A DNA stretch of 64,000 nt from a virus (IMGVR_UViG_3300011113_000664:64001-128000); one strand, 5' to 3'; shown: positions 16,195 through 59,681, counted from the first letter of the stretch. Notes: generated from the letters alone by a model not told the origin. A program made the numbers and translations.

Positions 16195-17958
16195 ATGTAC
16201 GGAATTACCGAAATCCTTAACTCTGGAAAAGTTGGTCAAGAATACCGCCAACTTAGAGAACAGCGTGAATTGATTACCGAAAAGTGGAATCAGTTCGGCT
16301 TGCTTGATGGCCTTGAAGGTCACATGGCTGAAAACATTGCTCAATTGTATGAGAACCAAGCTTCTTATCTCATTAACGAATCTACTGATGCTACATCTTC
16401 AGGTTCTTTTGAGACAGTTGCGTTCCCAATCATCAGACGTGTTTTCCAAAAATTACTTGCAAACGAAATCGTATCAGTTCAGGCTATGAACATGCCGATT
16501 GGTCGTTTGTATTTCATTAACCCTAAAATCTCTGTTAGAACTAACAATGCACATTCTCCATTTGATGGTGTATTTAATAATGCTGCTAACAACTATAACC
16601 CTGCAAACCATGCAACAAGTCCATACACCAAAACAGGTGGTACAACTTTTCAAACTACTTCTCTTTACGATTCTTTCTATAACACAGGAAGTTCTTTAGA
16701 TGATGATGGTGGTCTTTTTGATAGAACTAAGGGTACGATTTATACAAATAGTCCTACTTTACAAGTAATGGCAGGTTCTATTCTTTCAGGTTCGGTTGCT
16801 TCTAGAGTAACAACTAGATTAACCGGTTTTACTACTACTAACGAAGGTAAATTACAAGGACCTGTTGGACTTCCAGTTGATACTGAGTCTTTTTTAATGG
16901 GTCTTAAAGTTACTTGTAATCAAACTTTGATTGCAAGAGTTGGTGATACTAGTTATAATATTAATGCAGGTGATTCTATTCCATTTAGAGTACCAATGCA
17001 AGCATATGGTAAAGAATTAGTGGCTAAAGGTACTAATTATATTACTCTTGAGCTTTTATTAGATGGTCCTAGTTCAGCAGGTGTTTATGGTGTAAGTCCA
17101 AGTACTGCAACTACAGGTGGCTATTCTGCTTCTACTGGTCCATTAGCATTTACTGCTACTTATAGAATATATTCTCCTATGGAAGAAGATGCTAATATTC
17201 CTCAAGTAACATTTACTTTCGATTATATTGATGTATCTGTTGAGAAAAGAATGTTAGGTGCTACCTTTACACCTGAACTTCAGCAAGATGTTAATGCTTT
17301 CCACTCAATTGATGTTGAAGCTGAATTAACTGCTCTTCTTTCTGAGGTTGTATCAGGTGAAATTGACCGTGAAATTCTTCGTGACCTTCGTAAATCTGCT
17401 TCCCATGTTGAATTCTTCGATTGGGGTGGTTATGACAGAAGAATTACTTCAGGTGGTCTTGCACTTACTCGCAAAGATTATAACCAAGATTTGATTACTA
17501 AGATTAACCAAATCTCTGCTAAAATCATGAAATTCACTCTTCGTGGTGGTGCTAACTGGGTTGTATGTTCTCCTGAAGTTGCTGCAATCTTTAATGACCT
17601 TGAGTACTTCCATGCTTCTGATGCTTCTGCTGAAGAAACTAAGTTCTCTTTAGGTATTGAGAAAGTTGGTAATGTAGCTAACAGATACACAGTATATGTT
17701 GATGCTTATGCTCCTGCTGGTGTTGTTCTTGTAGGACACAAAGGAGATTCAATCTTCCATGCAGGTTACATCTACGCTCCATATGTACCGTTGATGCTTA
17801 TGCCTAAAACCATTAACCCTGCTGATTTCAAACCTGTAATGGGTATCATGACTCGTTATGCTAAGAAGGTTGTTAACAACAGGTTCTATGGTAAAGTAAT
17901 GGTTCAGGGTCTTCCTGTTGCTTCTCCTAACGAATTCATGTTAGATACAATTTCCTAA
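16195..17958 (+). CDS. Major capsid protein (T4 gp23-like)
   Basis: PIIRRVF..LLANEIVSVQAM..P.G, ELQQD..AFH.IDVEAEL, EIDREI, AGYIYAPYVPL, GIMTRY. Confidence 0.97.
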   Translation: MYGITEILNSGKVGQEYRQLREQRELITEKWNQFGLLDGLEGHMAENIAQLYENQASYLINESTDATSSGSFETVAFPIIRRVFQKLLANEIVSVQAMNMPIGRLYFINPKISVRTNNAHSPFDGVFNNAANNYNPANHATSPYTKTGGTTFQTTSLYDSFYNTGSSLDDDGGLFDRTKGTIYTNSPTLQVMAGSILSGSVASRVTTRLTGFTTTNEGKLQGPVGLPVDTESFLMGLKVTCNQTLIARVGDTSYNINAGDSIPFRVPMQAYGKELVAKGTNYITLELLLDGPSSAGVYGVSPSTATTGGYSASTGPLAFTATYRIYSPMEEDANIPQVTFTFDYIDVSVEKRMLGATFTPELQQDVNAFHSIDVEAELTALLSEVVSGEIDREILRDLRKSASHVEFFDWGGYDRRITSGGLALTRKDYNQDLITKINQISAKIMKFTLRGGANWVVCSPEVAAIFNDLEYFHASDASAEETKFSLGIEKVGNVANRYTVYVDAYAPAGVVLVGHKGDSIFHAGYIYAPYVPLMLMPKTINPADFKPVMGIMTRYAKKVVNNRFYGKVMVQGLPVASPNEFMLDTIS

Positions 17959-17979
17959 TCTAACTTAGAATAAAAAATT

Positions 17980-18008
17980 AAGGGGTAGATTTTTCTACCC
18001 CTTTTTTT
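17980..18008 (+). terminator. Rho-independent terminator after MCP
   Basis: AAGGGGTAGA-TTTT-TCTACCCCTT followed by a T-run. Confidence 0.9.
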
Positions 18009-18027
18009 ATTTACTATTTATAATAAA

Positions 18028-20873: not shown

Positions 20874-21073
20874 ATTAAAATATAAGTAAATATATAAGTT
20901 ATTGCTAGGTAAAAATATTGTGTTTCTCTTAAAGAAAGAGATTGAGACAATTTTTCTTGTTTTTTAATGCATCTTAAAAAGATATAGCAAACAAAAATAA
21001 AATAAATTATTGACCCACAAAGTAAAAACTTTGAAAGAAATATTGTAAAAAAGGTATAAATTAAATCTATCAT
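20870..21073 (-). CDS. Small membrane protein
   Basis: Two hydrophobic segments; ATGA overlaps at both ends. Confidence 0.65.
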   Translation of the reverse strand: MIDLIYTFFTIFLSKFLLCGSIIYFIFVCYIFLRCIKKQEKLSQSLSLRETQYFYLAITYIFTYILI

Positions 21074-21810
21074 ATGAATCTTCCTTTTGAGTTTATAGTT
21101 TTTAATTCTTTTGGTATTGGTGGTAAAAGTTTGTTTTTTGCATTTTCATTAACTTGTTTTTTCTCTAATTCCGGCTCTATTAACTCAGTAATTGTATAAG
21201 AAGGTAAATCATTATAAATATAATACGTTTTATTGGTTTTATCTAAAATTATTTTAAAATAATTTTTTCGACTATCTTTTTCTTGTCCACATTGAAAAAA
21301 TCTTAATTTACCGTTTGCTGCATTAAAAAAGGATATTTTTAAGTAAAATGTATCACCGCTTTCTAAAAGATATTGGGGTATGTAAACACTTCTAAATTCT
21401 TTTGAAAGTTTTTTATTATCAAAATTTATAGATGCGCTTGTGTTAAATATAGAAAAAATTTTACTTAATTTAGTAAAATTTCTAGAAATTAATTTTTGTG
21501 TATTTTCAACAAAACTATCGTAAATATCAAATAAATAAAAAGATTCATTTATAAATGCATAAGTTACTAATCCAATATCTGTATATGATGTAAGATTATT
21601 TGCAAATTTTACATTTAAAGTAAAATTAGATTTTGGTATAAATGATACATGTTCAACATCTTGCTCCTCCATTAAAGATTCATCAAGAGTTTTTTCTACC
21701 TCATAATCAATATATTTTTTTATTGATTCACTTTTATTAGAAAAATCATGAATTTGACTAATATTTAAATTAATATTTATATCGCTATTATTATTTAATA
21801 ATCTTAACAT
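21070..21810 (-). CDS. Putative virion structural (baseplate/tail) protein
   Basis: Member of a late operon; N/F/Y-rich. Confidence 0.55.
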   Translation of the reverse strand: MLRLLNNNSDININLNISQIHDFSNKSESIKKYIDYEVEKTLDESLMEEQDVEHVSFIPKSNFTLNVKFANNLTSYTDIGLVTYAFINESFYLFDIYDSFVENTQKLISRNFTKLSKIFSIFNTSASINFDNKKLSKEFRSVYIPQYLLESGDTFYLKISFFNAANGKLRFFQCGQEKDSRKNYFKIILDKTNKTYYIYNDLPSYTITELIEPELEKKQVNENAKNKLLPPIPKELKTINSKGRFI

Positions 21811-23306
21811 ATTGATTTTAATTTTCTAACATTAACTTTTATATTATCTTTATTAAATGTATAATTATTAATTTTATAATCCCCTAAGAATTCATTCACC
21901 AAAATGAATGTATTTCTATCAGATAAATCAGGTTTTAAATAAAATAATACATCATCAAAAATATAATGATTATTGTTTACAAATGGATAATCGTAATTTT
22001 CCGCATCTCCATAAATTAGTAATTCTCTCCATATATATCTATCTTGATAGAGAATTGCATTTTGAGGTATTTCTATAATATTTTGAGTATTTGCTGTATA
22101 GACTTCATTTAAAAAGTCACTATATCTTTTTAAACCAATTTTTTTAAATGGATTAAATTTAAACCAAAAATCTATCAATACATACTTATCTACATTACTA
22201 CTAAAGTAAGTAAATGAACTATAATTTTCATTTGTATAACTTGTAAAAGCAGATACGTCACTTATAAATGTTCTTTTTTCATCTTTATATGTGATTTTTA
22301 AAAGATATTCTTTTTCTAAAATGTTATTAAATGAATAATTTTCTTTATTAAAATAAACATAATTTCCTTCCACATTTGATAAATCAAAGGTTGCCATTTT
22401 TATTTCTTTAATATTTGTATTTACAACTTTTTTATTATAATCACCATTTCCAATATCAAGATAATTTCTAATAAATCTTAAATTTTTTGAAATATTAGAA
22501 TCGGATATTTCTAAATTATATATTCTAAAAAATAAATCAAGTTTTGATGAAAAATATTTTTTAAAATCGTTTACTGTGAAATTACTACCAATAACAATAT
22601 CATTTATTTGCGAATTAGTAAATGCTGTTGTATTTGCTGAATAACCAAATGTACTAGTTGAATCTATTTCATTTACATAATCAGTTACACCACTATAATA
22701 TAGTTTTTCATAAATTGTTAAATTTGAATCAACTTTTGGTGTAAAACCAAGATAAATACTATTGTCATAGATAAGTTCTGTATTTGTTGATGAGGATAAA
22801 AAAATTAATTCTTTTGGGTCAAGAATTGAAGTATTAAATCTAAAGTGGTAATTTCTTTCTCCAAATAGATTTCTAGAGTATGTAAAATAATTTAAAACAG
22901 AATCACCTGAAACAGCTTGTAATTTTTCAAAAAATGTACTACTTGAATAATTGTAAGTATCTTGTATTTTTTTTAATCTAAATAATTTTATGTCAAAAAA
23001 ATTTTCTAAATTAAAAAATGTATTTGTAATACTTTCTCTAAAAAAATTATTTATAACACTTTCTGTTGCACTTGTAAAAATTCCACCATTTTTTTTATCC
23101 CTTAAAAAAGAAAAATAATTAACATTACCATATATTCTATATTTATATGATTCATTTCTTTCCTTTGTAAATAATTCAGTTAAAGAAATAACTTTACTAT
23201 TATTAAACTCATTTAATTCATTAAAATTTGTTTTTAATGATAGATTTAAAGATAAATCCTCATCTTGCGCTAATAAATATCTCTTATTTGGTTTTATCTG
23301 CTCCAT
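21804..23306 (-). CDS. Putative virion structural (baseplate/tail) protein
   Basis: Member of a late operon; ERNESYKYRIYG, WRELL.YG, YPFVNNNHY. Confidence 0.55.
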   Translation of the reverse strand: MEQIKPNKRYLLAQDEDLSLNLSLKTNFNELNEFNNSKVISLTELFTKERNESYKYRIYGNVNYFSFLRDKKNGGIFTSATESVINNFFRESITNTFFNLENFFDIKLFRLKKIQDTYNYSSSTFFEKLQAVSGDSVLNYFTYSRNLFGERNYHFRFNTSILDPKELIFLSSSTNTELIYDNSIYLGFTPKVDSNLTIYEKLYYSGVTDYVNEIDSTSTFGYSANTTAFTNSQINDIVIGSNFTVNDFKKYFSSKLDLFFRIYNLEISDSNISKNLRFIRNYLDIGNGDYNKKVVNTNIKEIKMATFDLSNVEGNYVYFNKENYSFNNILEKEYLLKITYKDEKRTFISDVSAFTSYTNENYSSFTYFSSNVDKYVLIDFWFKFNPFKKIGLKRYSDFLNEVYTANTQNIIEIPQNAILYQDRYIWRELLIYGDAENYDYPFVNNNHYIFDDVLFYLKPDLSDRNTFILVNEFLGDYKINNYTFNKDNIKVNVRKLKSIC

Positions 23307-36183: not shown

Positions 36184-36189
36184 ATATTT

Positions 36190-37155
36190 TTAAAATAAAT
36201 CATCTACAAAGTTCCAATCTTCATTAGGTTTTGAATATGATGTTTCTCTATTGGCAAAGAAATCAGTTTGTTGTTCACCTGATGTTGCAATATAAAACCA
36301 TTCCATATCCATAAGCATTTCATCATCAACAGTATAAACAGGTGTCAACATTAACTCTTTAAGTTTTCTGTTTGCTCTGTCATACATGAAATTTTTAAGA
36401 GTTCTTTTTGAAATTGTTTCTAAATCACCAAGTTCAAATATTTTATCAATGTAATTGAATTCATTTGTTATTGCTAAATCAAGACCTCTATAAAGAGTAT
36501 CTTTTAATTCATCTGTCCAAATGTAAGGATTTTCTTCAATAAGTGTTCTAAATAATTTACAGCCTGATTCAGAATGTAAAGATTCATCACGAATAGAGAA
36601 AATCATTTGCTGACCAATACCTGTCATCATATTCTTTTTTCTAAAAGAAAGAAGAACAGCAAATGAAGAATATAATTGCATACCTTCTGCACAAGCAGAG
36701 AATAATGCAAGACTTCTAGCAATATTAGAAAGATTAGTATCATTAGGGTCGATTTCCATCAACACATTTAGTTTTGCCATTGTTTCTTCATCTTCTAAAA
36801 ATGCTTTAAAGTCTGTAAGACCCAATGTATCGTTTAGATATGAATATGCAACTGCATGGATTGTTTCAAATGCACCAAATGTACTTGCCATCATCTTAAC
36901 TTCAGGAACAGGAAACCATTTAGTTACATATGTTGACCAATAATCATTAACAACAGTTTCTGTTTGTGTAAATCCCTTTAAGATATTACCAATAACATTC
37001 TTTTCTTCAATTGTTAATTCATTGTTCCAATCTTTAACATCTTTTTGCATGTTAATTTCCGTATGTAACCAATGTGCATTTTGTTGTTTAAACCATGCTT
37101 CGTAAGCCCATTGATATTCAAATGGTTTGAATTCTAATCTTTCTTGTGTAATCAT
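36190..37155 (-). CDS. nrdB: Ribonucleotide reductase class I beta subunit
   Basis: KPFEY, ETIHAVAY, EGMQLYSSF, RDESLH, DFFANRETSY. Confidence 0.97.
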   Translation of the reverse strand: MITQERLEFKPFEYQWAYEAWFKQQNAHWLHTEINMQKDVKDWNNELTIEEKNVIGNILKGFTQTETVVNDYWSTYVTKWFPVPEVKMMASTFGAFETIHAVAYSYLNDTLGLTDFKAFLEDEETMAKLNVLMEIDPNDTNLSNIARSLALFSACAEGMQLYSSFAVLLSFRKKNMMTGIGQQMIFSIRDESLHSESGCKLFRTLIEENPYIWTDELKDTLYRGLDLAITNEFNYIDKIFELGDLETISKRTLKNFMYDRANRKLKELMLTPVYTVDDEMLMDMEWFYIATSGEQQTDFFANRETSYSKPNEDWNFVDDLF

Positions 37156-37174
37156 TTTATAAATTTATAAGTAT

Positions 37175-48921: not shown

Positions 48922-50322
48922 TTATACCACCAATCTAATATTAAATGGTATTACTGTAGAAGGTAATTTTTTAACAGGTTCACTTAATTTTCCTATTCCT
49001 ATTAATTCACCTGCTGCATTATAAAGTCCTATTGATGTAATAAATGTTGGTGCTTCTTCACCAGCTAAATATGCACCTTCGTATGTTGAATTTGTTGTTG
49101 ATGCAAATTCATTTGGTCCGGCAAGACAAATAATATTTTGAACAAATTCTGTTGTAATTGAATCAAATTGAGAATTTGAAATTGATGTATTTGTAAAATA
49201 TATTTTAGCAAAATTTTTATCACCCGAATATGTAAGTCCTGAGTTAATTCCATTAAATCCTGAACTTGTTCCTGCTGTATATCTAAAATTTGCTACTAAT
49301 GTTGGGTCAGTAATAACAGCAAATCCTTTATCTTGATATAAAATACCAACAGGTTTATCAAAAGCAGGATATGCTGTTGCACCATCGGTAACACCATCAT
49401 ATGAAGCATATATTTTTTTACTTTCATCCCCTAAAACACTTGGGAACTGATTAGTTTTAGACCAAACATCCCATAATAAATTATTTGAAAGTTGTCTAAC
49501 TTTAACCACTATAGTAAATGTTTTACTATCATTAGATACAGGATTATCTAAATGTGCTTTTAGTGTTAAAGAAGTAATTCCGGGTGTATTTATTGGAAAC
49601 CAAGAATTTTTATTTATAACAGCTTCACCAACTGTAAATTTTACATTGTCAACACCTGTTGGAGGTGTATATTCAATATATACTTCATCATCTGTATTAA
49701 GTATTACAGTAGAAAAGTCATATTTGTTACTAGCATCACCTGTTACTGTAACAGTTGTTGATGTCAAAATAGTAATTTCAGTTCCTTTATCTTTTGGTAC
49801 AGCAATATCATTTGAGTATAAAAATGTTACATTGGTATTAAAATCATTATCAGCAGTTGGTTCAAAACCAAAATAATTTTTTCTTTTTTCTGAATACCTA
49901 CTGTTTAATTTATTTCCAATAAAAGTACTAGTAGAAGGTGTACCATCAAAACCAAAATATGTACCATAAACAGTTGTTGCTGTTTCAACGCTGTTTAAAG
50001 TAACCGGAAGAGTTAATTTAAAAGTTTTACCATCAATTAGTTCACCATATTCACCTTTTGGTATTTCAATAACAATTATGCTGTCAACATTTAAATCTTT
50101 TAAGGCAGTACTATTATAAGTGTTATAATACTCATTTAATTCTGCTGAAGTAATTGGAAAATTAAAAGATTTAAATAAATTTGCATAAGGTGTTGAAGTA
50201 TTAAGTTTTTCTGCATAAGTATACAAAAGTTTATTCCCACTTAAACTTGAACTATTTCTATATGGTACTTTTTGAAAACCACCTGAAGATACAATTTCTT
50301 TTAATCCATCTTGTGCTGCCAT
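48922..50322 (-). CDS. Tail/baseplate protein carrying the C-terminal half of a tail-collar-type domain
   Basis: NEF.STTNST..FITSIGLYNAAGELIGIGKLSEPVKK; own late motif at 50339-50348. Confidence 0.7.
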   Translation of the reverse strand: MAAQDGLKEIVSSGGFQKVPYRNSSSLSGNKLLYTYAEKLNTSTPYANLFKSFNFPITSAELNEYYNTYNSTALKDLNVDSIIVIEIPKGEYGELIDGKTFKLTLPVTLNSVETATTVYGTYFGFDGTPSTSTFIGNKLNSRYSEKRKNYFGFEPTADNDFNTNVTFLYSNDIAVPKDKGTEITILTSTTVTVTGDASNKYDFSTVILNTDDEVYIEYTPPTGVDNVKFTVGEAVINKNSWFPINTPGITSLTLKAHLDNPVSNDSKTFTIVVKVRQLSNNLLWDVWSKTNQFPSVLGDESKKIYASYDGVTDGATAYPAFDKPVGILYQDKGFAVITDPTLVANFRYTAGTSSGFNGINSGLTYSGDKNFAKIYFTNTSISNSQFDSITTEFVQNIICLAGPNEFASTTNSTYEGAYLAGEEAPTFITSIGLYNAAGELIGIGKLSEPVKKLPSTVIPFNIRLVV

Positions 50323-50357
50323 GATATATAAATTTTATTATAAATAGTGTTAAACAT

Positions 50358-51977
50358 TTATAAATTGCAGTAAAGACCATATGGTGTATAATCTATATTT
50401 GAATTTATTAATACACCCCAAGGATAACAATATTCAAATGTTACATTTAGAGAATCGTAAATAATTGAACCATATATATATTTTTGACCATCAGAAAGAT
50501 AGCTATAATATGCATTTGGTTTAGGGTAATCAGTATTTAATGTTGAATTATATGTTAGATTATCCATATTTTTTAAAATTCTTCTAAGTCTTAAAGTTCC
50601 ACCAGCTGGATTTTGAGTAGCATAATTTATAGTTGAATATATTTCTGTTGTTACTTCAACATATCTTATTTGAAAACCTGTACTTCCATTTTTCCAATTT
50701 TCAAATAAACGAACTGTTAGATGAAATGGGGAAAGTCGTTCAGTAAAAGTACTTGAATTATATGATTGAGGTAAATTATTTGAATAAACAGAATCACTTT
50801 GTGTCACATCAGGTGCATAATCAGCAAAACTAGTTCCGGTTATTAATGGTGTTGGTATAAATGTTGGTACTGTTTGTTTCACATAGAAAGGATTGAATCC
50901 TTGATTACTATATATGTATGTATCTTCTAAATTTCTTCCATCAAAATCAATAGGAATCGAACCTGCGTTATAATCTGGAAAGGTGGCTACATCAGGGGTT
51001 TTAGAGTTAGCTTCGTTAGTACCATCATAATATAAATCTAAAGCAAATGAATTTTCAAGCACTTTATTATTATCTATGTTATAAAAATAATCTATGTCAG
51101 CTTGAGTCATATTTAAATCACTTCTTCTATTACCATTATCAACTTTAATAATTGCGTAACCAGCTTTTAAACTTTCAAGTTCAGCCATTGGTGAAGTATA
51201 TGCATTGTATGGTACATCAGCAGGTAGGTTGTTAGAATCAAGTCTAGTTACCATATATAATTTTCTTGAACAATTAATATTATCAAATCTTTTGGTAAAA
51301 CCTACTTGTCCTGAACTATCTTTAACTTCAACTATAAAATTAAATGCATCAGCCTTTCTTGGTAAAAAATCATCATCTAATAAACAATAAATAGGATTTG
51401 CTCCGGTATTATCTTTTATTATGCGTTTACAAGTCGCATTTAAAGTAATTTTTTTATAAGCAACAGTTGTATTACCAACAGTAACAGGGTCAAAACTATA
51501 TGATTCTGATGTTTCTGTTTTTAAAACTTGTGCTTGTTCAATTGTTGAGTTTGAATTTGGAAAAGTTATTGTTTCTGTAATAATATTAAATGTGTATCCT
51601 TCAAATACACCATTTTTTGATACAGTAATTTCAAATTGTTCTTTATTTGGGTCTGTTGAACAAGTACCATTAACAAGGTATTCACCCTGAAATGGTGGAA
51701 AGTAAATTAAATTATTTTTTAATAATGCGCTTTCTGAAATATTTGGTGAACAAAAATCATTATTACCTGTTATATCAGATATAAACCCACTTTTAAGAGT
51801 ATTATATGTTGATGCAGAAATTAATTGAGATGCAATTTTATAATTTACATCTTCATCATGTAAACTAAAATATGCCACTTGAAAATCTACAGTATCACCT
51901 GTAATAAATTTTTCTTTACCTTTTTGCGTTAGGTAAGCATGTATTTTTTTGATATCTGATTGTTGTATATATCCCAT
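50358..51977 (-). CDS. Tail appendage paralog 4 (conserved ~90-aa N-module + variable domain)
   Basis: MGYI..AYLTQKGK..FSLHDEDVNY..GFISDITGNNDFC. Confidence 0.7.
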   Translation of the reverse strand: MGYIQQSDIKKIHAYLTQKGKEKFITGDTVDFQVAYFSLHDEDVNYKIASQLISASTYNTLKSGFISDITGNNDFCSPNISESALLKNNLIYFPPFQGEYLVNGTCSTDPNKEQFEITVSKNGVFEGYTFNIITETITFPNSNSTIEQAQVLKTETSESYSFDPVTVGNTTVAYKKITLNATCKRIIKDNTGANPIYCLLDDDFLPRKADAFNFIVEVKDSSGQVGFTKRFDNINCSRKLYMVTRLDSNNLPADVPYNAYTSPMAELESLKAGYAIIKVDNGNRRSDLNMTQADIDYFYNIDNNKVLENSFALDLYYDGTNEANSKTPDVATFPDYNAGSIPIDFDGRNLEDTYIYSNQGFNPFYVKQTVPTFIPTPLITGTSFADYAPDVTQSDSVYSNNLPQSYNSSTFTERLSPFHLTVRLFENWKNGSTGFQIRYVEVTTEIYSTINYATQNPAGGTLRLRRILKNMDNLTYNSTLNTDYPKPNAYYSYLSDGQKYIYGSIIYDSLNVTFEYCYPWGVLINSNIDYTPYGLYCNL

Positions 51978-51989
51978 ATTAATAATTTA

Positions 51990-53177
51990 TTATGTCCAAT
52001 AATGGAATCTGTATTCTAAAGTTATATCGCTTGAATATGATGGGTTGATAAAATCGCTATAGACTCTAAATAGAATATTTCCTTGTGCAGAATTTGGTAT
52101 TGTACTTGTAGAGCCTGGTGGTTTTGTTCTTGCTACATCTTTTCTTATTACTTTTATTGGTACTGATTTTTTATATATTGTATTATTAGCCGTTGGAGTT
52201 ACAGTACCATTTGTATTGTTATTAAATTCAAATCTTAAATTTGATGTAATTACTGTTTCTGAATACGGTGGGTTATCCACTCCAATAACTAAATCAATAT
52301 AATTCCAAGCAGAATCGGTAAGATTACTTTTTTCTATTTTAAAAAATGCTGTATTTAATGTATTTTGTGTTATTTGTGAATTATCTGAATTTCTTATTGA
52401 TACATCTATATAATTATAATAACTTGGGTCTAATGTAATTGTCTGTTTATTTCCACCAACAACAGCTACACTAGCAGGATTAGTAGGAATAGTATTGTCA
52501 AAAGTATTTGTTTGACTAAATATTAAATTATTTTGTGGTTGATTTGGTAAACAGTCTAAATTAGTTTGCCCAATCAATTTTTCAGTTCCTTGACCATCTT
52601 TTACATAAACTTGATAATAAATTGGTATTACTTGTTGTGCATCTCTTGTAGAAAATTCAAATGATTGACCTATTTGTTTTGGTGTAAAATAGTTATCAGG
52701 ACCAAAATCTGTATAAAATTGATTTATTGTTACTTGTGGTGTACCATTTGGAAATACAGGTGCAACTCTCCATGTATAAGGTCCACCTGAACCTCCTACA
52801 GGGTTTGTAACATTTATTATTACAACATAATCAAAAGTGGAACAGTTTTGAGAAAAATTAGCACTCATTGGTGAATTACCTTCACCTTTAAGCATATTTT
52901 TACCAAATACAACCATTCCTTTATTACTTTTAATACAAACATCATTATCACCTGTTATATCAGGTATAAAACCACTTTTTGGTGTGTTATATAATGTGTT
53001 TCCTGAAGAGTCAACCCCAATAATTTGTTTACTAATTTGATAATTTATATCCTCATCATGTAAACTAAAATTTTTAATTTGAAAATCAATAACATCGCCA
53101 TTAAAAATTCTTTCTCTTGCATATTCTGTAAAATATGCATAAAGTTGTACTGTTGATGAACTTACTATAAATCCCAT
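51990..53177 (-). CDS. Tail appendage paralog 3 (N-module + beta-rich domains)
   Basis: MGFI..AYFTEYAR..FSLHDEDINY..GFIPDITGDNDVC; GGSGGPYTW..YQVYVKDGQG resembles an SprB-type repeat. Confidence 0.7.
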   Translation of the reverse strand: MGFIVSSSTVQLYAYFTEYARERIFNGDVIDFQIKNFSLHDEDINYQISKQIIGVDSSGNTLYNTPKSGFIPDITGDNDVCIKSNKGMVVFGKNMLKGEGNSPMSANFSQNCSTFDYVVIINVTNPVGGSGGPYTWRVAPVFPNGTPQVTINQFYTDFGPDNYFTPKQIGQSFEFSTRDAQQVIPIYYQVYVKDGQGTEKLIGQTNLDCLPNQPQNNLIFSQTNTFDNTIPTNPASVAVVGGNKQTITLDPSYYNYIDVSIRNSDNSQITQNTLNTAFFKIEKSNLTDSAWNYIDLVIGVDNPPYSETVITSNLRFEFNNNTNGTVTPTANNTIYKKSVPIKVIRKDVARTKPPGSTSTIPNSAQGNILFRVYSDFINPSYSSDITLEYRFHYWT

Positions 53178-53186
53178 TGTTTTATA

Positions 53187-54197
53187 TTAATTAGATATTG
53201 TCTTTTCAAGTTGCGCTCTATATGTATATGTATTTTTTTGAGTGTTTACTTGTATATTTGAATTAGTTGAATTTAAAGTAAACGTAAACTCAAAATGTCT
53301 ATTAATAGTGGTTTGGTCTAAATAACTTGGTTCAATATAAAGTACCATTTCTGTTAATTTATTTATAACATCATTAGTTGTTACACTAGCAAAACTATAA
53401 TTAGATATATAATTTGAAATATTACCAAGATTACTAGTTGGATTATAATCTTTAAAACTAATTTTTATAAAATCTTCAAAAACTTTGTTTGGTTTTGTTC
53501 CGGTAAAAGTATATCCAATGGTACTTGGTGTTGAAATAGATAAATTGAATTTTACAGCATCTCTCTCTGCTTGAGTAATTGGTGTTGTATCACCGGGAGA
53601 TGTTTTTAATACAATTGCAAATCTTGAATCTTGGTCACCAAGTGGTATTTGTGTGCCTGGGGTTGGACTATCACCATTTATTATGATGGTACAATTTTGA
53701 CCTAACTTTAATTTATTTGTTGTGCTATCGATAGGGTCTACTTTTCTTCTATGTATCCAATAATCATTGCGATTATCATAATTTGTTGCATATTCAAATT
53801 CCAATATTAATGGTTGAGTTCTTGGTGTTACAGACCCACCACCTGTTCCTCCTCCTGTTCCACCACCTGTTCCTGTTGATGAGGTTATAGAAGATAAAAC
53901 AACAAGTGGTCCACCATAAATTAAATGACTATCATCATCTACGATATAGGCTTGTGATACACTTTTAATACAAATGTCATTATCACCTGTTGCATCAGGT
54001 AAAAATCCATTTTTTAAATAATTATAATTTAAATTTTGGTCAATAATTGATGAAATTTTATAATTTACATCATTATCATGTAGACTAAAAAATTTTATTT
54101 CAGAATGTGTTGCTGATGAATATAATAATTTTTTTCTACCATCTTGTGTAAGATAGCATTTTATTACTTGTGGTGTTGTATCTGTTATAAATCCCAT
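53187..54197 (-). CDS. Tail appendage paralog 2 (N-module + GT linker + variable domain)
   Basis: MGFI..CYLTQDGR..FSLHDNDVNY..GFLPDATGDNDIC; TGGGTGGGTGGG linker. Confidence 0.7.
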   Translation of the reverse strand: MGFITDTTPQVIKCYLTQDGRKKLLYSSATHSEIKFFSLHDNDVNYKISSIIDQNLNYNYLKNGFLPDATGDNDICIKSVSQAYIVDDDSHLIYGGPLVVLSSITSSTGTGGGTGGGTGGGSVTPRTQPLILEFEYATNYDNRNDYWIHRRKVDPIDSTTNKLKLGQNCTIIINGDSPTPGTQIPLGDQDSRFAIVLKTSPGDTTPITQAERDAVKFNLSISTPSTIGYTFTGTKPNKVFEDFIKISFKDYNPTSNLGNISNYISNYSFASVTTNDVINKLTEMVLYIEPSYLDQTTINRHFEFTFTLNSTNSNIQVNTQKNTYTYRAQLEKTISN

Positions 54198-54210
54198 TTT
54201 ATTTTATAAT

Positions 54211-55389
54211 TTATGCTGACTTTTTTCCTTCTACCCTACCTTTATAATCATATGTATCTTTTCCTGTTACTACTGATAAATTAGGTGAATCAGATATTAA
54301 TTTTATTTTAAATTGAAACTCTTTAATTAAATTAGTATATAAACCAGTTGTTATAGTACTGTTAAAATAGCTTTGTTTAATACCAAAAGTTAAATCTGTT
54401 ATTGGGTTATAAGGATTTCCCGGTGGTCCAAAATTTAAAATAGATGTAGTACCAACAGTATTTAATATACCGTTAAAATTTCCAACATCTATACTTGGTT
54501 TAATATAAAAAATCCAATTGGTATCAACAATTGATTCTAATAGAATTTTAAATTTAATTGAATTTATTTCATCTTGTGTTATATTAGTTTGAGTTGGGTC
54601 AACAAAACTATATCTAATCTTTAATGTATTATTAGTTTTTAAACTAAAATCTGTTCTAGCCTGAGTAGGGGTATTAACATTTTGTGTATGTAAAAATTCA
54701 GGTGAATCTTTAGTTAAAGGTGCAAGTACATTAGTTGGATTAACAAATTCTATTTGAAATTGTCTAAGTGGTGGGTCTGAAACAGTAATATATGAAGTTC
54801 TTGTTTTACTATCTGAACCAAATTGATTAGTTGCTCTTAGTTTTACAGCATAAACACCTGATGTTGTGTATGTATGACTTGGGTTTTGTAATGTACTATC
54901 ATTAGTACCATCATTTTCAAAATCCCATTCCCATGCAAGAGATGTTAATGGTGCAGACATATTTGTAGAATTATCAGTAAACTGAACGGTTAACGGTTTA
55001 TATCCTGAAAGTGTCGAAGCCGTAAAATCGGCAACAGGTATAAATGTCGTAGGTCCACCACCGCCACCACTAGTACCACCTCCACCATCAGGTGGTTGAG
55101 GTGTTCCACCATAAATTAAATAACTATTATCATCCACAATGTATGCTTGAGCGATACTTCTAATACAATTATCATTATCACCTGTTACATCGGGTACAAA
55201 TCCCCTTTTTAACTTATTATACTCAAAATTTATAATTTTGGATGCTACATCATAATTTATATCATTATCATGTAATGTAAAATGCGTTGCTGTACATGCG
55301 GTAGCATCGCCAAAAAGTAAATTACTTCTACCCTTTTGTGTTAAGTAAGCATAAAGTGTTTGAGTGGTTGAACTTGGTACATAACCCAT
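54211..55389 (-). CDS. Tail appendage paralog 1 (N-module + PKD domain + variable domain)
   Basis: Shared N-module; PVADFTAS..PLTVQFTDNS..WEWDF..QNPSHTY..G.Y.VKL.ATN is a PKD domain. Confidence 0.8.
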   Translation of the reverse strand: MGYVPSSTTQTLYAYLTQKGRSNLLFGDATACTATHFTLHDNDINYDVASKIINFEYNKLKRGFVPDVTGDNDNCIRSIAQAYIVDDNSYLIYGGTPQPPDGGGGTSGGGGGPTTFIPVADFTASTLSGYKPLTVQFTDNSTNMSAPLTSLAWEWDFENDGTNDSTLQNPSHTYTTSGVYAVKLRATNQFGSDSKTRTSYITVSDPPLRQFQIEFVNPTNVLAPLTKDSPEFLHTQNVNTPTQARTDFSLKTNNTLKIRYSFVDPTQTNITQDEINSIKFKILLESIVDTNWIFYIKPSIDVGNFNGILNTVGTTSILNFGPPGNPYNPITDLTFGIKQSYFNSTITTGLYTNLIKEFQFKIKLISDSPNLSVVTGKDTYDYKGRVEGKKSA

Positions 55390-55390
55390 A

Positions 55391-57445
55391 TTAAAAATCC
55401 ATATCTAATTCTACTGTAAATAATTTATTGGTACTCTTTTTAATAGGATTATTTAATTTACCAATAGCGACTAATGAATTATTTTGGTCATAAATAGCAG
55501 CTTCGGTTATATACACACTATCATTACTATCCCATGTTGGATTATTAGAAGTGTTATATTCATTAAATCCTAAAATATGTGACATTTTTGTTCTATAAAC
55601 TGTTGCCTTAATTTCTGTGTTTATATTGCCAAGTAATATACTTTCCTCACCAAAACCTAATTTTGTTGTTGTTGAATAATCTCCTGTTGTTGGTAATGTT
55701 CCTATCCAATTTTCAATATTATATGTTGTACCACCTGTATAATCATCATTATTTAATGTATAATTTTGGGTAAGTGCTGTTACAGGTATTGAATATACAC
55801 CCCATAAACCATAATCTCGTAATTTTGATGTATAATCAATTAATTTCCAAGTTGCAGGATTTGGTGTTAGATTTGTATTAACTTTTTGAGCCAAAATATA
55901 AAATTTGTTTGCGTTAAACCCTGTTCCATCTGATGAAGATACATCAGATACCATGAATTTTAAATCAGATGATTTAAAACTAAATAATACATTTTGGTCT
56001 GATGTAGTAGATGGATATATGTATGTTGTATAACCACAATGAATACCACCTCTTAAACCTAAACTAGTATTAGTATTGTAACCATCATTATATGCGTTTT
56101 CATTAGTAAATAAATATGTTAAAGCAACATATTGTGTTGAATTTTTAGGTAATAGTGAATTTGTACTTGGAGAAGTTGCAATAGAACCTTGCCAATTTGG
56201 TAATGGTAAAGTATGTGACCTGTCACTTTTAAGTGCTAAAACATTTACTAATTCTTCATCCTCAATAACTGCAATTCTTAAATCATTAAATACTTTCCCC
56301 ACAATATTTTGAGAAGTTGATTCAACAAGATTATAATATTCAGTTGTAAATCCTGTTAATGTTGTTAGTTCTGTTTTCTTTTGTGTATCTGCCGATAAAA
56401 CAATACCCATTGTTCGGTTTTCTTTACCATGATACATAACTGTCGGTAAATCAATTCTAAATGTATTATTATAAAATCCTTCACCGTAATAATTTGATAT
56501 TGATTTATTAGTATAATGAATTATTGCAAATTTAGATGTAGAATTATCAAGCGATAAACCTTGAATGTATTCTTTAAAACCTGAAAATATTGCACTATCA
56601 TAATATTGCGGTACATAACTATTTGTTATACCTGCTAAAGTATCTTTATAAACAATATTTAAATTCCAAACAGGTACATCATCGTTTGCACCAATATTAC
56701 AAGTTGAATCAAACGATAGAGTGTTATAATTCCAATAACCAACAGTTGTTCCTGTACTATAGTAATTATCAACTGCATTATTTGGAGGATAAATATAAAT
56801 TAAACATTTATATGTTCCACCATTTCCATTAAAACGTGGTAAAGTCCTATCAAGTGTTATACCCGTACCATTTACAGCTTGAACTTTATACCAAAGAAAT
56901 TGTCTTGGATAGTTTTCACCAATAACACCTGTTGTACTCGTAAATACTGTTAATTTTGGATTTCTAAAATCAATTAAAAGTGTAGTACCTGTTATAATAT
57001 TTGTTGCTGATGCTACATTAATTACACTACCACCTGTAAAACCTGTAATAAAAGCAGTTGTCATGCCTTTAATATATGTTGATGATGTTAATGCTGTAAA
57101 ACCTGCTGAAGTAGAACCTGTAAAAAATCCTCTTTGTTTAGCGGTATTTTTAACTTGTGTAGTGACAGGTAGAATATTATCAATAGTTTTTTTTGTTACT
57201 GTTGAGTCACTTGATGAAATTGGAACACCATATTTAATATTAGGATTTGCATCTTTTGGTCGCATTATTGAAAGGTCAGAACCATCAATTACACTTTCAA
57301 AATTTCTTAAAAAATTATAATCAACTTCTGAATCACCAAATTCAATTCTTGTAAAGTTTAAATTACCTGAAGCAAGTAGTAGTCTACCTATATTTGTCAG
57401 TTTTGTGTTAATTACAACTGCATCTGTTTTTTGTATAAAACTCAT
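55391..57445 (-). CDS. Tail/baseplate protein with both halves of a tail-collar-type domain
   Basis: N-terminal LTNIGRLLLASG..FGDSEVDY; C-terminal NTSNNPTW..ITEAAIYDQNNSLVAIGKLNNPIKK. Confidence 0.7.
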   Translation of the reverse strand: MSFIQKTDAVVINTKLTNIGRLLLASGNLNFTRIEFGDSEVDYNFLRNFESVIDGSDLSIMRPKDANPNIKYGVPISSSDSTVTKKTIDNILPVTTQVKNTAKQRGFFTGSTSAGFTALTSSTYIKGMTTAFITGFTGGSVINVASATNIITGTTLLIDFRNPKLTVFTSTTGVIGENYPRQFLWYKVQAVNGTGITLDRTLPRFNGNGGTYKCLIYIYPPNNAVDNYYSTGTTVGYWNYNTLSFDSTCNIGANDDVPVWNLNIVYKDTLAGITNSYVPQYYDSAIFSGFKEYIQGLSLDNSTSKFAIIHYTNKSISNYYGEGFYNNTFRIDLPTVMYHGKENRTMGIVLSADTQKKTELTTLTGFTTEYYNLVESTSQNIVGKVFNDLRIAVIEDEELVNVLALKSDRSHTLPLPNWQGSIATSPSTNSLLPKNSTQYVALTYLFTNENAYNDGYNTNTSLGLRGGIHCGYTTYIYPSTTSDQNVLFSFKSSDLKFMVSDVSSSDGTGFNANKFYILAQKVNTNLTPNPATWKLIDYTSKLRDYGLWGVYSIPVTALTQNYTLNNDDYTGGTTYNIENWIGTLPTTGDYSTTTKLGFGEESILLGNINTEIKATVYRTKMSHILGFNEYNTSNNPTWDSNDSVYITEAAIYDQNNSLVAIGKLNNPIKKSTNKLFTVELDMDF

Positions 57446-57452: not shown

Positions 57453-57471
57453 ACTATTTATAATAAATAGT
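57453..57471. promoter_or_regulatory. Face-to-face late-promoter pair forming the palindrome ACTATTTAT-A-ATAAATAGT
   Basis: Perfect 9-bp inverted repeat in a 33-bp divergent gap. Confidence 0.75.
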
Positions 57472-57478: not shown

Positions 57479-57739
57479 ATGTTTGGTTTATTTTCAAAAT
57501 TTATAAATGATTTACTTAGGGATAGTAATTCTAAAAAAACTTCACTAACAAGAATACTAGCTATTATGTTATTTTTTATTGTTATATGGTTTCATATTGA
57601 AGCAATTTCAATAATGGTTTCTAAACAAGAGATTGACCACGCATTAATATTTGAAGATTTTGCTTTTATTAGTGCATTGATTATGCATAAAAATTATATT
57701 AATAGAAATAGCAAAGAAGAGCAAGTTGAACCTTCTTAA
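57479..57739 (+). CDS. Two-TM membrane protein, holin candidate
   Basis: 86 aa, two TMs, charged C-terminus, late motif. Confidence 0.5.
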   Translation: MFGLFSKFINDLLRDSNSKKTSLTRILAIMLFFIVIWFHIEAISIMVSKQEIDHALIFEDFAFISALIMHKNYINRNSKEEQVEPS

Positions 57740-58275
57740 AATGGTGTTAAAAAGTTTAAAAAGGGTAATCCAATAATATCTTTTTCAGATAATATGGGAT
57801 TATCAATAACCCAATTAATATTTAAATCTTTATCTAAAGGGTTTATTGATATTTCAGATTCTTTATTATATATATTTGAACATTTATAACTAAAAATCGA
57901 ATCTTCTAAAGCAACAAAACCATGTGCAAATCCTTTTGGTATATAAAGACTGTTGTTTTTTTCACTAGAAAGTTCAATAGATATATATTTTCCATATGTT
58001 TTTGACCCATTTCTAATATCAACAGCAACATCTAAAACTTTACCATTTACTACTCTCACTAATTTTGCTTGTTCAAATGGTGGTTTTTGTAGATGTAGAC
58101 CTCTTACAACATTTTTTTTTGAAAAAGATTGATTATCTTGTATAAAATCATCGGTAATCCCTATTTTTTCAAATGTATTTTGGTTATATGATTCAAAAAA
58201 ATAACCTCTATTATCTTCAAATTTTTTGGGTATAATTTCTATTATGCCCTCTATATCAAAATAATTTATTTCCAT
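57736..58275 (-). CDS. rmlC: dTDP-4-dehydrorhamnose 3,5-epimerase
   Basis: DNRGYFFESY, QDNQSFS, RGLHLQ, QAKLVRV, GFAHGF, YKCSN.Y, ILSEKD. Confidence 0.97.
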   Translation of the reverse strand: MEINYFDIEGIIEIIPKKFEDNRGYFFESYNQNTFEKIGITDDFIQDNQSFSKKNVVRGLHLQKPPFEQAKLVRVVNGKVLDVAVDIRNGSKTYGKYISIELSSEKNNSLYIPKGFAHGFVALEDSIFSYKCSNIYNKESEISINPLDKDLNINWVIDNPILSEKDIIGLPFLNFLTPF

Positions 58276-58277
58276 AA

Positions 58278-59681
58278 TTAAGCAACTAATTCAAATTTTT
58301 CTTTCATCAATCCTCTATAAAAGTCTGCCCTGATATGACTTAATACATCAATGTCATATCTTTTACATGCAAGTTCATATGCTGTTTCACCCATATCTTT
58401 AACATGATTTGGATTATTGATACAATATTTAATCTTTTTATACCAATCTTTATATTGTCTATCAGGATTTACATATAAAATATTTTTACCATCTACCCAA
58501 TCTTTGTCATGGTTGTAAATTGGAACATCTGAAGCAATTACAGGAACTTTGTGAAATGCAGCTTCAATTACTTTAAGATTTGATTTTGCAAATTGATAGC
58601 GATTATCTGAATTATCATCCATAACACCTTTACCATATACTTTAATAGGTGCAAGTGCTACATCACCATGTTTATAATTTGCAGCAAACTTGTAAAGACC
58701 TTGAGTTTTGTGTCTAAAATAATTTTGTTCTGCTTGTTTTTCATAAACAGCATCCAAATCAAACTTCATTAGAAAATCATAATAGTCTTTATCTTTAATA
58801 AGTTTATAATTTGATGTGAAAATCTCTTCATATCTTGTCCAAACAGTTTCTTGTGGTTTAATTGGTCTAGTTTGTTCTTGAAGAACATTTCCATTATATT
58901 TTTCAACAAGTTGTCTTGGAATTTCAGGTGTATCGGAAATATTAAAATTATTTGCCACAAGTTTATTATAAAGCTGTTGAGTAAATAAACCCATAGCTTG
59001 CACTTCTTTAATAAACTCTTCATTAACAATATAATTTGTTGTTGTTCCTCTCAAATCAAAACCCGAAAGATGAACTTGAAATTTATTTTCAATTGATGTA
59101 TCAGCAATAAGTCTTTCAAAACTATCTTTTAATAAAGAGACATCTTGTAAGTGTGATGAACCAGCAAGATAAAGAATTCTTAATTTATCATAAGAACATT
59201 TATCGTTTGCAGGAATCCATTCTTTAAGATTTCTATTTACTCCATTTGGGATAATTAAAATATTTTTATTATAAGGTTTAATATAATTTTCATAAACAGG
59301 AGTTGTTGTTGAAACAGCATCCACGATTTTAAGATTACCAACAATTTTTTCTTTTAAACCATCTTTTTTAACTGCATGATATAGAGGATGTTCTCTTGAT
59401 ACTTCCCAATAATCATCAATATCAAGTATTACCTTAATACCAAATGAATGAAGTTTATCTACTAAATATGGCATTTGAGCAAAATCACAAAGAGTTCTAT
59501 GTCCATGAATAATATCATATTGTTTTAAAAATTCATCATTATTCCAATCAATATTTTTAAGATAATCAATTTCAAATTCATCATCATAAAGTTTTGATAA
59601 AGAGATAGCAGGTTGTTCAGAACGATAAAAGTTTACACCATGAACATCCATGTTTGTAATCAAAATTCTTGGTTTTCTCAT
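58278..59681 (-). CDS. GT-B fold glycosyltransferase (GT4-like)
   Basis: GVNFYR..P, DIDDYW, IIPNG, GSSH..D, DVALAP, KSNLKVIEA, VIASDV. Confidence 0.88.
   Translation of the reverse strand: MRKPRILITNMDVHGVNFYRSEQPAISLSKLYDDEFEIDYLKNIDWNNDEFLKQYDIIHGHRTLCDFAQMPYLVDKLHSFGIKVILDIDDYWEVSREHPLYHAVKKDGLKEKIVGNLKIVDAVSTTTPVYENYIKPYNKNILIIPNGVNRNLKEWIPANDKCSYDKLRILYLAGSSHLQDVSLLKDSFERLIADTSIENKFQVHLSGFDLRGTTTNYIVNEEFIKEVQAMGLFTQQLYNKLVANNFNISDTPEIPRQLVEKYNGNVLQEQTRPIKPQETVWTRYEEIFTSNYKLIKDKDYYDFLMKFDLDAVYEKQAEQNYFRHKTQGLYKFAANYKHGDVALAPIKVYGKGVMDDNSDNRYQFAKSNLKVIEAAFHKVPVIASDVPIYNHDKDWVDGKNILYVNPDRQYKDWYKKIKYCINNPNHVKDMGETAYELACKRYDIDVLSHIRADFYRGLMKEKFELVA

Follow-up and report, generated by a model that had tools for sequence, protein, structure and literature searches.

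In an uncultured jumbo phage of a T4-like clade, three large proteins on the outside of the particle carry a three- to six-fold excess of the short motif [ST][GA]x[ST], which is also found in their relatives in hundreds of contigs and is under selection as a unit, order-specific, located in loops, specific to the clade and mobile in position. The best reading of this motif, with a probability of roughly 45%, is that it is an O-glycosylation acceptor signal on outer virion proteins for phage-encoded cytoplasmic glycosyltransferases; the particle is plausibly sugar-coated at the motif sites. We infer the purpose of the selection (glycosylation), the enzyme (a glycosyltransferase encoded among the tail genes) and the acceptor residue. 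The source is IMGVR_UViG_3300011113_000664, a 170-kb contig that is 52% complete, and the window, meaning the whole stretch of DNA that was analysed, covers 64,000 nucleotides of it (64001-128000). A search for a cultured relative found none. The virion genes that were scored are the following, with positions counted from the first letter of the window.

16195-17958, plus strand: major capsid protein (MCP) of the gp23 family (PF07068, E 3e-68)
21804-23306, minus strand: motif-rich 500-aa protein of the neck/tail module (6 sites, mostly Y-[ST]-[GA]-x-T)
25734-29660, plus strand: 1308-aa virion-module protein, richest of all in the motif (19 sites)
30650-33409, plus strand: tail sheath, 919 aa (Pfam Phage_sheath_1 and Phage_sheath_1C, residues 639-908)
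48922-55389, minus strand: five cassette genes of the preliminary description, not enriched in this phage
55391-57445, minus strand: 684-aa tail/baseplate-peripheral protein (11 sites)

Counts of [ST][GA]x[ST], written as observed versus expected, were compared with shuffles that keep composition within blocks of 10, 20 or 40 residues (5000 each). The 1308-aa protein has 19 sites versus 5.3, a number reached by none of 5000 local shuffles at any block size, the 500-aa protein has 6 versus 0.94 (reached by 1 of 5000) and the 684-aa protein has 11 versus 4.2 (reached by 7 of 5000), so that all three exceed what their composition yields. Eleven permuted control patterns built from the same residue classes are flat. 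The preliminary description, whose pentapeptides were all located in the proteins to which it assigned them, had proposed that the motif recurs across exposed virion proteins in general; this holds for these three, to which the excess is limited among the proteins of this phage that were tested, but not for the MCP (5 versus 3.5), the sheath (10 versus 7.7) or the cassette genes (0-3 sites each versus 1.1-2.6), where it is not significant under local shuffles (24 versus 20.4 when pooled). All MCP sites lie within an insertion at residues 147-311, and the G001 homologue has 4 versus 1.9. Likewise, all 10 sheath sites fall within a non-conserved middle insertion (residues 119-541), which across 18 homologues holds 208 sites versus 101, while the conserved core holds 6 versus 22.8. 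That the MCP and sheath, the most exposed of the abundant proteins, are not significantly enriched in this phage counts against glycosylation. The rarity of the motif in enzymes and head-internal proteins, previously judged by eye, is borne out by the remaining 207 ORFs of the contig (45 versus 56). The narrower pattern [ST]G.T is depleted in the non-virion ORFs of this phage (5 versus 14.5), a depletion that was not replicated in the complete relative G006. Helicases are false positives through motifs of their own, as in a 484-aa DnaB-like protein and T4 UvsW (both 5 versus 0.9).

The excess is found again in homologues of the three proteins. Ten homologues of the 1308-aa protein at 56-65% identity have 14-23 sites versus 4-5.5, which in the family alignment occupy 46 distinct columns, 6 of them common to all; S/T and G/A swap at conserved sites, and in the protein itself 13 of the 19 sites fall in the variable C-terminal part (residues 780-1308). 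Searches of PHROG, Pfam, NCBIfam and PDB sequences gave no match to this protein, and its earlier label of wedge is thus unsupported. Homologues of the 500-aa protein, for which family and PDB searches also gave no match, have 3-6 sites versus 0.4-0.7 at 44-56% identity, and the G006 homologue has 12 versus 1.7. The 684-aa protein, a marker present on at least 552 IMG/VR contigs, has an AF2 model (pLDDT 83) in which both terminal parts look like fibre adaptors or tailspike anchors of phages: Foldseek aligns it locally with the N-terminal domains of tailspikes, and VIA matches it to baseplate/fibre-adaptor chains of phages. Its 120 homologues have a mean of 12.2 sites versus 4.2, and over 50 of them the sites take 95 distinct positions, mostly in coil between strands, with a number of low-occupancy sites close to chance expectation. 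At 30-40% identity, homologues still have about 12.8 sites but just 3.2 positions in common with this protein, and this maintenance of number while positions move was counted in favour of glycosylation. Positions 109, 137, 231 and 570 are invariant through the whole family and could be structural, which, like the chance-level number of low-occupancy sites, speaks against glycosylation.

At the level of whole genomes, G006 has 485 sites versus 223 with 15 enriched proteins, several of them without an identified homologue, arranged in blocks beside homologues of the tail/baseplate genes of this phage; its proteins of the portal region and those resembling a terminase or polymerase have almost no sites. 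The 647 ORFs around 79 loci contain 2671 sites versus 1215, compared with 1524 for the reverse control. Outside the clade, no comparable excess is seen in T4 (55 versus 56), Flavobacterium phage immuto (99 versus 83) or coliphage muut (42 versus 33).

The core of the motif is hydrophobic-[S/T]-G-x-T. At position 2, Gly is enriched 4.7- to 5-fold and Ala about 2-fold, while Ser, Asn, Asp, Pro and Val are not enriched, and the restriction to small apolar residues argues against simple turn propensity. A hydrophobic residue is needed at position -1, where a charged residue gives a factor of 1.08, and Asn at position 0 or 3 gives no enrichment. The three motif positions co-vary across 113 homologues (observed/expected 1.44 versus 0.94-1.24 in controls). 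Ser is encoded from both of its codon families and Thr, Gly and Ala by several codons, which shows that the motif is not a DNA word. Known sequons of the host type lack such an excess. The general O-glycosylation sequon of Bacteroidota is D-[S/T]-[A/I/L/V/M/T]; it is not enriched in six virion proteins of this phage (18 versus 16.9) and reaches 51 versus 40.5 in the 15 enriched G006 proteins. Similarly, the N-x-[ST] sequon shows no enrichment in this phage (76 versus 74.5) or in G006 (173 versus 167).

The same grammar could describe a structural or surface element of beta-rich outer domains that stays unmodified, for example a strand end, tight turn and strand start in succession, or a loop kept neutral and hydrophilic against aggregation or proteolysis, with the glycosyltransferase acting on another substrate; we consider this rather unlikely. 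The sites do flank beta-strands (in the 684-aa family strand is over-represented at -3 and +7, coil from 0 to +3) and are densest in a single inserted beta-barrel domain of the 684-aa model (about residues 116-222). The hydrophobic residue before the motif, the four family-wide positions of the 684-aa protein and the six invariant columns of the 1308-aa family would also suit such a role. However, the good turn formers Asn and Asp are not enriched at position 2 although Ala is, most sites shift between subclades while the count stays at about 12, the motif is spread over unrelated proteins as well as over the 95 positions within one family, and in T4, immuto and muut the beta-rich proteins of the virion lack the excess. 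The location in loops and outer insertion domains, such as the coil of the 684-aa family and the sheath insertion, agrees with what had been expected of a surface sequon.

A candidate enzyme for glycosylation is encoded directly upstream of the 684-aa gene, in the following order.

57455-57462, minus strand: T4-type late-promoter-like box TATAAATA, 10 nt upstream of the 684-aa gene
57736-58275, minus strand: rmlC, dTDP-4-dehydrorhamnose 3,5-epimerase (PF00908, TIGR01221), an accessory insertion behind the glycosyltransferase
58278-59681, minus strand: 467-aa GT-B glycosyltransferase of GT4 type (AF2 fold), candidate protein glycosyltransferase
59716-60108, minus strand: gp25-like baseplate wedge/sheath initiator (PF04965, E 3e-10), directly upstream of the glycosyltransferase
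60108-60989, minus strand: 293-aa protein, first gene of the operon, syntenic at 75-88% identity and without a match in a Pfam search
61017-61024, minus strand: T4-type late-promoter-like box TATAAATA, 28 nt upstream of the 293-aa gene

The predicted fold (pLDDT 92.3) confirms the 467-aa protein as a GT-B, GT4-type glycosyltransferase, as had been proposed, with VIA Z scores of 24-28.6 to GT4 enzymes across about 320 residues, the best superpositions being on 6kih (Z 28.6, rmsd 3.4, 335 residues) and 2jjm ('family GT4 glycosyltransferase', Z 27.4), and a Foldseek E of 1.4e-13. At the sequence level it stays below the Pfam gathering thresholds of Glyco_transf_4 and Glycos_transf_1 (16.5 and 16.8 bits versus 28.5 and 27), while some homologues bear precomputed PF00534, PF13439 or PF13692 matches and the family profile finds GT1/GT4 chains in the PDB at E 6.7e-8 to 2.7e-6. 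The C-terminal nucleotide-sugar motif of GT4 enzymes is E-x7-E. The second Glu is kept as Glu373 (in KSNLKVIEA), which like K366 and K370 is invariant across 34 homologues, and the first is not, with Ala365 eight residues before it. A specific insertion at about residues 209-300 is missing from distant homologues. By sequence comparison the predicted enzyme is a core, highly conserved gene of the clade, found in 6 of 6 complete relatives and 88-93% identical among close relatives, compared with 57-70% for the 684-aa protein next to it. The order 293-aa gene, gp25, glycosyltransferase and rmlC on a single strand agrees, for the last three, with the preliminary description, and no terminator-like sites were found between 61200 and 57300. 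As a consensus match, the glycosyltransferase would sit behind a late-type promoter and in a late operon; TATAAATA is weakly over-represented window-wide (30 versus 20.9), so each box is a match and not proof. Since every complete relative has the glycosyltransferase, its co-occurrence with the motif is uninformative, and because no relative negative for the enzyme exists the link between the two is circumstantial. In contig G012 (68% complete) the glycosyltransferase was not seen, yet enriched proteins are present.

The identity of rmlC is solid, with PF00908 at 223.4 bits (cut-off 27, E 2e-66) and TIGR01221 at 209.6 bits (cut-off 155.75). The gene is genuine but accessory: it is missing beside the glycosyltransferase in 10 of 10 full-length syntenic relatives and, of 5 complete relatives, 2 encode it at another locus. 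The formerly predicted coat of rhamnose or deoxyhexose is therefore not a conserved feature and the rhamnose prediction is weak. Searches of the contig, which is 52% complete, turned up no rmlA, rmlB or rmlD; the RmlD and dehydratase models have a single match there, a GDP-mannose 4,6-dehydratase, and the sole nucleotidyltransferase is a HAD-NTP-transferase fusion. Other sugar genes include a hypervariable island (GDP-mannose dehydratase, aminotransferase, C-methyltransferase, GT10 and GT1) and a conserved GT2/GT-B triad about 40 kb downstream of the glycosyltransferase operon, which is an equally possible motif-reading enzyme.

These sugar genes could instead modify phage DNA bases, a polymer of the host envelope or a lipid-bound glycan and have nothing to do with the motif, which seems clearly improbable. 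The closest structural neighbours of the GT4 enzyme act on small molecules, lipids or polysaccharides, with protein glycosyltransferases (SdgB) ranking lower, and muut has rmlABCD and four glycosyltransferase genes beside its replication genes without any motif excess. Phage glycosyltransferases that hypermodify DNA with glycans are documented and work with sugar-nucleotide genes, and they act on hydroxymethylated or hydroxylated pyrimidines and require matching base-modifying enzymes (bioRxiv 10.1101/2023.12.21.572611; PMC13326640). In contrast, no base-modifying enzymes were found on this contig (52% complete), neither a thymidylate-synthase-family nor a Tet/JBP gene, the Tet control being silent, and the glycosyltransferase belongs to a late structural operon, where it is flanked by gp25 and tail genes and follows a late-type promoter without an intervening terminator; in G006 too it is within the structural region. 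A thymidylate-synthase-family gene is present in 5 of 5 complete relatives tested, but its scores of 310-327 bits presumably indicate an ordinary ThyA. Lastly, an artefact of Ser/Thr/Gly/Ala-rich patches and the many ORFs tested could account for the MCP, sheath and cassette excess that dissolves under local shuffles and for the helicases, but as an explanation of the whole it is already contradicted by replication across hundreds of homologues and independent genomes, by the 1308-aa count and by the flat permuted controls.

If the motif is a glycosylation signal, its closest counterparts are found in several systems. Mycobacteriophage Che8 and its relatives themselves encode the glycosyltransferases that modify their virion proteins (Freeman et al. 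2023, Cell Host Microbe 31:1216, cited in PMC11256854). This is again a tailed phage with glycosyltransferases of its own, whose shield-forming glycans have to be added before lysis, in the host cytoplasm; the glycans are proven experimentally there, whereas the present system is known from sequence and predicted structures, and the hosts of those small siphoviruses are Actinobacteria. No short internal sequon for a Che8-type system is described in the accessible texts citing Freeman et al. 2023. What sets the jumbo clade apart is a four-residue motif scattered through proteins of the tail and baseplate periphery. GtfA and GtfB of serine-rich-repeat adhesins are cytoplasmic GT4-family protein O-glycosyltransferases. 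Like SdgB of S. aureus (PDB 7vfl, with a bound O-glycosylated Ser-Asp peptide), which has the GT-B/GT4 fold in common with the phage enzyme (Foldseek E about 1e-9), they are soluble and, ahead of export, modify Ser where a simple peptide context is repeated. The acceptors of these enzymes are long repeats of low complexity, unlike the dispersed hydrophobic-[ST]-G-x-T of folded phage domains; the insertion mentioned above is particular to the phage enzyme, and SdgB ranks under many small-molecule GT4 enzymes as its neighbour. Chlorovirus PBCV-1 glycosylates its capsid at atypical sequons with enzymes of its own (PMC9614988, PMC5408694), and shares host-independent machinery, non-canonical acceptor sites and many viral sugar genes with the phage. 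The structural neighbours of the phage enzyme include a chlorella-virus glycosyltransferase (PDB 3oy2, Z 23.2). The chlorovirus is however a eukaryotic giant virus unrelated to tailed phages, and its capsid glycosylation is N-linked.

For the glycosylation reading, the earlier proposal of a glycan-coat sequon therefore stands in so far as the motif is a selected unit in loops of outer virion proteins, in a clade with a core GT4 enzyme, but not for the MCP, sheath and cassette genes or for a conserved rhamnose. The acceptor signal would be hydrophobic-[S/T]-[G/A]-x-[T/S] with the core [S/T]-G-x-T. The late operon (293-aa gene, gp25, glycosyltransferase and, where present, rmlC) would have the GT4 enzyme made simultaneously with the tail proteins; this enzyme, or the GT2/GT-B triad, may add the first sugar to Ser/Thr in exposed loops, and the sugar island and add-ons such as rmlC may supply and extend a strain-specific glycan. 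It is tentatively suggested, with more doubt than for the signal itself, that a large aquatic clade of T4-like jumbo phages uses hydrophobic-[S/T]-G/A-x-T as a portable O-glycosylation sequon, read by a core cytoplasmic GT4 enzyme, to coat fibres, baseplate periphery and sheath, with the island making the glycan strain-specific. If true, this would be the first defined sequon for the glycosylation of phage particles and a new minimal tag for cytoplasmic O-glycosylation.

The window covers positions 64001-128000 of one IMG/VR virus contig of 170,056 bp and 27.7% G+C. CheckV rates the contig as 52% complete and complete relatives span 288-380 kb, so it represents a portion of the genome of an uncultured T4-like jumbo phage. 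Recognisable genes in the window encode a gp23-type major capsid protein (MCP), the tail sheath and gp25. Ten large proteins of the structural region lack a PHROG match, and three presumed outer virion proteins of 1308, 500 and 684 aa find nothing in PHROGs, Pfam or NCBIfam. Family profiles of the 1308- and 500-aa proteins gave zero matches to PDB sequences, and no cultured phage with the 684-aa family occurs among 50,697 phage records. The motif [ST][GA]x[ST], a candidate O-glycosylation sequon, was placed by the preliminary description across the exposed virion proteins in general and was combined with a glycosyltransferase (GT) and rmlC into a candidate virion glycosylation system. The motif was tallied in all ORFs, with expectations taken from shuffles that preserve composition in blocks of 10, 20 or 40 residues.

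Motif counts in window proteins against shuffled sequences
25734-29660, + strand, 1308-aa protein: 19 observed, 5.3 expected, reached by 0 of 5000 shuffles
21804-23306, - strand, 500-aa protein: 6 observed, 0.94 expected, reached by 1 of 5000 shuffles
55391-57445, - strand, 684-aa protein: 11 observed, 4.2 expected, reached by 7 of 5000 shuffles
30650-33409, + strand, sheath: 10 observed, 7.7 expected, not significant
16195-17958, + strand, MCP: 5 observed, 3.5 expected, not significant

All of the pentapeptides named in the preliminary description are present in the sequence, but the enrichment holds under local shuffles for the 1308-, 500- and 684-aa proteins only and is lost for the MCP, the sheath and the five cassette genes within 48922-55389 (- strand). 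Composition is therefore ruled out as the source of the motif in the former three proteins and accepted for the latter group in this phage. A 460-aa protein just past the window end has an excess as well (4 sites, 1.0 expected). None of eleven patterns made by permuting these residue classes is comparably enriched, the reverse pattern occurs 5, 1 and 5 times in the 1308-, 500- and 684-aa proteins, and the remaining 207 ORFs of the contig hold 45 sites where 56 are expected. A 484-aa protein outside the window (5 sites, 0.9 expected) turned out to be a DnaB-like helicase and was set aside as a false positive, of the sort that the helicase UvsW gives in T4. The 207 non-virion ORFs have fewer copies of the sub-motif [ST]-G-x-T than expected (5 against 14.5, P ~0.007), which would fit the avoidance of a promiscuous modifying enzyme; such avoidance is not claimed, as G006, a complete relative, shows no such deficit (48 against 44).

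The codons of the motif are varied and include both serine families and several threonine, glycine and alanine codons, so the signal lies at the protein level, which rules out a word in the DNA, for example a site for restriction or methylation. Its composition was resolved in a pool of 35 enriched proteins from five genomes, in which values are valid only for comparison among sub-motifs. In this pool [ST]-G-x-T is enriched 4.7- to 5.0-fold and [ST]-A-x-T about twofold, serine is weak at the last position, and S, N, D, P or V at position 2 give no enrichment (0.55-0.9). The preceding position favours hydrophobic residues (4.8-fold; charged residues 1.08-fold), and these values lead to the working definition hydrophobic-[S/T]-[G>A]-x-T. 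As alanine is favoured at position 2 and the turn-forming asparagine and aspartate are not, what is required there is probably a small apolar side chain and not a left-handed turn. The host-type sequons of Bacteroidota, D-S/T-x, and N-x-S/T are not enriched.

The excess extends through the relatives of this phage. G006 (371 kb) contains 485 sites against 223 expected, and 15 of its proteins are individually enriched. These form blocks adjoining homologues of the tail and baseplate genes of this phage, and homologues of the 1308-, 500-, 460- and 684-aa proteins are among them; several of the 15, including very large proteins in a run at 79-105 kb, are without an identified homologue, and from their position we infer that they are virion proteins. 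Homologues of portal-region, terminase-like, polymerase-like and other enzyme genes in G006 have 0-4 sites, and a more distant relative with a sheath of 34% identity shows a pattern like that of G006. The flanks of 79 loci contain 647 distinct ORFs, which together carry 2671 sites where 1215 are expected (reverse control 1524); 132 of these ORFs are individually enriched. The set of motif-bearing proteins varies between relatives, and a 246-aa protein adjoining the 500-aa gene (21070-21810, - strand) has a single site here and 8 in its G006 homologue (1.4 expected). Phages from outside the clade show little or no excess, with 55 sites against 56 expected in T4 virion proteins, 42 against 33 in those of coliphage muut and 99 against 83 in Flavobacterium phage immuto, where one fibre has 15 against 7.4 and the 467-aa GT family discussed below is absent. 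These three phages rule out a generic property of myovirus tail proteins. The cultured, phAPEC8-like Escherichia phage muut (NC_052657.1) itself carries a full rmlABCD set and four adjacent GT genes (35398-38659 and 107413-110589), which adjoin primase and DNA polymerase genes.

Within families the number of sites is maintained and their positions move. Ten 1308-aa sequences of 56-65% identity have 14-23 sites each (4-5.5 expected) and 500-aa homologues have 3-6 (about 0.5 expected); the same comparison finds no enrichment in the adjacent 789-aa and gp15-like proteins. The 1308-aa alignment has sites in 46 columns, six of them common to all sequences; at conserved sites S/T and G/A interchange and x varies, and at variable sites the flanking positions often vanish together. 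The 684-aa family comprises at least 552 IMG/VR stretches and 225 database proteins, and the 120 members listed average 12.2 sites against 4.2 expected (reverse control 5.7). Fifty diverse members use 95 distinct positions, and each sequence has about 2.8 sites at four near-universal positions, about 4.5 at positions retained within subclades only and about 5 at low-occupancy positions, the last being near chance level. Homologues of 30-40% identity have 12.8 sites, of which only 3.2 positions are common with the 11 of this protein. In 113 aligned homologues the three motif-defining positions co-occur 1.44 times as often as predicted from independent columns (0.94-1.24 for nine control patterns).

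In its N- and C-terminal parts the 684-aa protein, as modelled by AF2 (pLDDT 83), resembles phage fibre adaptors and tailspike anchors, and a beta-barrel is inserted at about residues 116-222, where motif density peaks. The stretch of about residues 100-240 has six sites, the one at 231 being close to its end. Judged by secondary structure only, its sites lie mostly in strand-bracketed coil. Among 18 sheath homologues, sites are scarce in the conserved core formed by the N- and C-terminal parts (6, with 22.8 expected) and frequent in the variable middle insertion (208, with 101 expected); by analogy with T4 gp18 the core presumably faces the tube and the insertion points outward.

The 467-aa GT (58278-59681, - strand) scores below Pfam thresholds and on its own has zero matches to PDB sequences. 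Its family contains 133 proteins, all of uncultured phages and some with GT1 or GT4 Pfam matches, and the family profile matches GT1/GT4 chains in the PDB (E 6.7e-8). Superposition of the model (pLDDT 92) on GT4 enzymes gives Z 24-28.6, and of the E-x7-E motif the second glutamate alone is retained. Residues of about 209-300 form an extra helical and strand insertion between the two Rossmann domains which is missing from the 404-424-aa homologues of distant jumbo relatives; residues 217-268 weakly match a stretch of the ribonucleotide reductase large subunit (E 0.008-0.15). On G018, the contig behind locus L095, the family match is split into four pieces over 3.4 kb (69402-72845) in one stop-free frame of 1156 aa, which may be a GT gene interrupted in frame by large inserts, for instance inteins. 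Ten syntenic full-length relatives have the GT placed between gp25 and the 684-aa gene; in nine close ones it is 88-93% identical and its neighbours 57-88%. A TATAAATA box is located upstream of the 293aa-gp25-GT-rmlC operon and a second upstream of the 684-aa gene, and no terminator-like site was found between the two. As the GT is present in six of six complete clade genomes it is a core gene, and there is no natural GT-negative control; low-motif 684-aa homologues do occur, one of them in these six genomes. On the contig of G012, a 68% complete relative, no GT was seen and enriched proteins are still present.

The assignment of rmlC as proposed proved correct, and the gene is a genuine equivalog. 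It follows the GT in this phage only among the syntenic loci compared and is found elsewhere in two of five complete relatives; no rmlA, rmlB or rmlD partners occur on the 170-kb contig. In its place behind the GT, a relative of 60% identity (locus L016, 11470-12820) has ORFs of 153 and 295 aa without a Pfam match, and accessory genes seem to accumulate in this slot. The gap that separates rmlC/GT from the 684-aa gene is occupied by an oppositely oriented ORF of 86 aa (57479-57739, +), which has no family match and, at 60-83% identity, keeps its place in all close relatives. The contig also carries a variable sugar island (GDP-mannose dehydratase, HAD-nucleotidyltransferase fusion, DegT aminotransferase, sugar C-methyltransferase, GT10 and GT1), which adjoins a second set of core glycosyltransferases:

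Contig 164497-167163 (window coordinates 100497-103163, past the window end): conserved triad comprising a protein of 265 aa, a GT2 of 267 aa and a GT-B-like protein of 357 aa, with homologues in G006, G012 and the more distant relative G001

The sequon-reading enzyme, if any, need not be the 467-aa GT.

Glycosylation of the motif is a tentative reading to which we assign a probability of about 0.45. A purely structural role is unlikely, and the few invariant sites may be structural; in general a modification site fits the data better than a requirement of the fold, because the motif is order-specific and demands a small residue at position 2, its positions drift at constant count, its sites lie in loops and outer domains, it is limited to a clade with dedicated core GTs of predicted late expression, and host-type sequons are not enriched. 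That the GT acts elsewhere and the motif is unrelated to it is quite improbable. Against the glycosylation reading, the structural neighbours of the GT are mostly not protein GTs. A role in DNA modification keeps some likelihood, because thymidylate-synthase-family genes occur in five of five complete relatives tested, although none was found on this 52% complete contig.

To our knowledge, experimental proof of phage-particle glycosylation is confined to a few mycobacteriophages. Full-text literature searches brought up no acceptor motif for this modification. Mycobacteriophages provide a documented case of virions glycosylated by phage GTs (Freeman et al. 2023, as cited in PMC11256854). Cheap and concrete tests of the glycosylation reading are possible with one enzyme and one 120-residue domain, and a four-residue tag with a soluble GT4 enzyme would be useful for cytoplasmic glyco-engineering. 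If the motif is structural instead, it would be a rule specific to the clade by which outer phage domains are built, and would still call for an explanation. If it is a sequon, sugar coats would be common among abundant freshwater and marine jumbo phages, with consequences for host recognition, for escape from grazers and from defences that bind particles, and for the stability of the particles.
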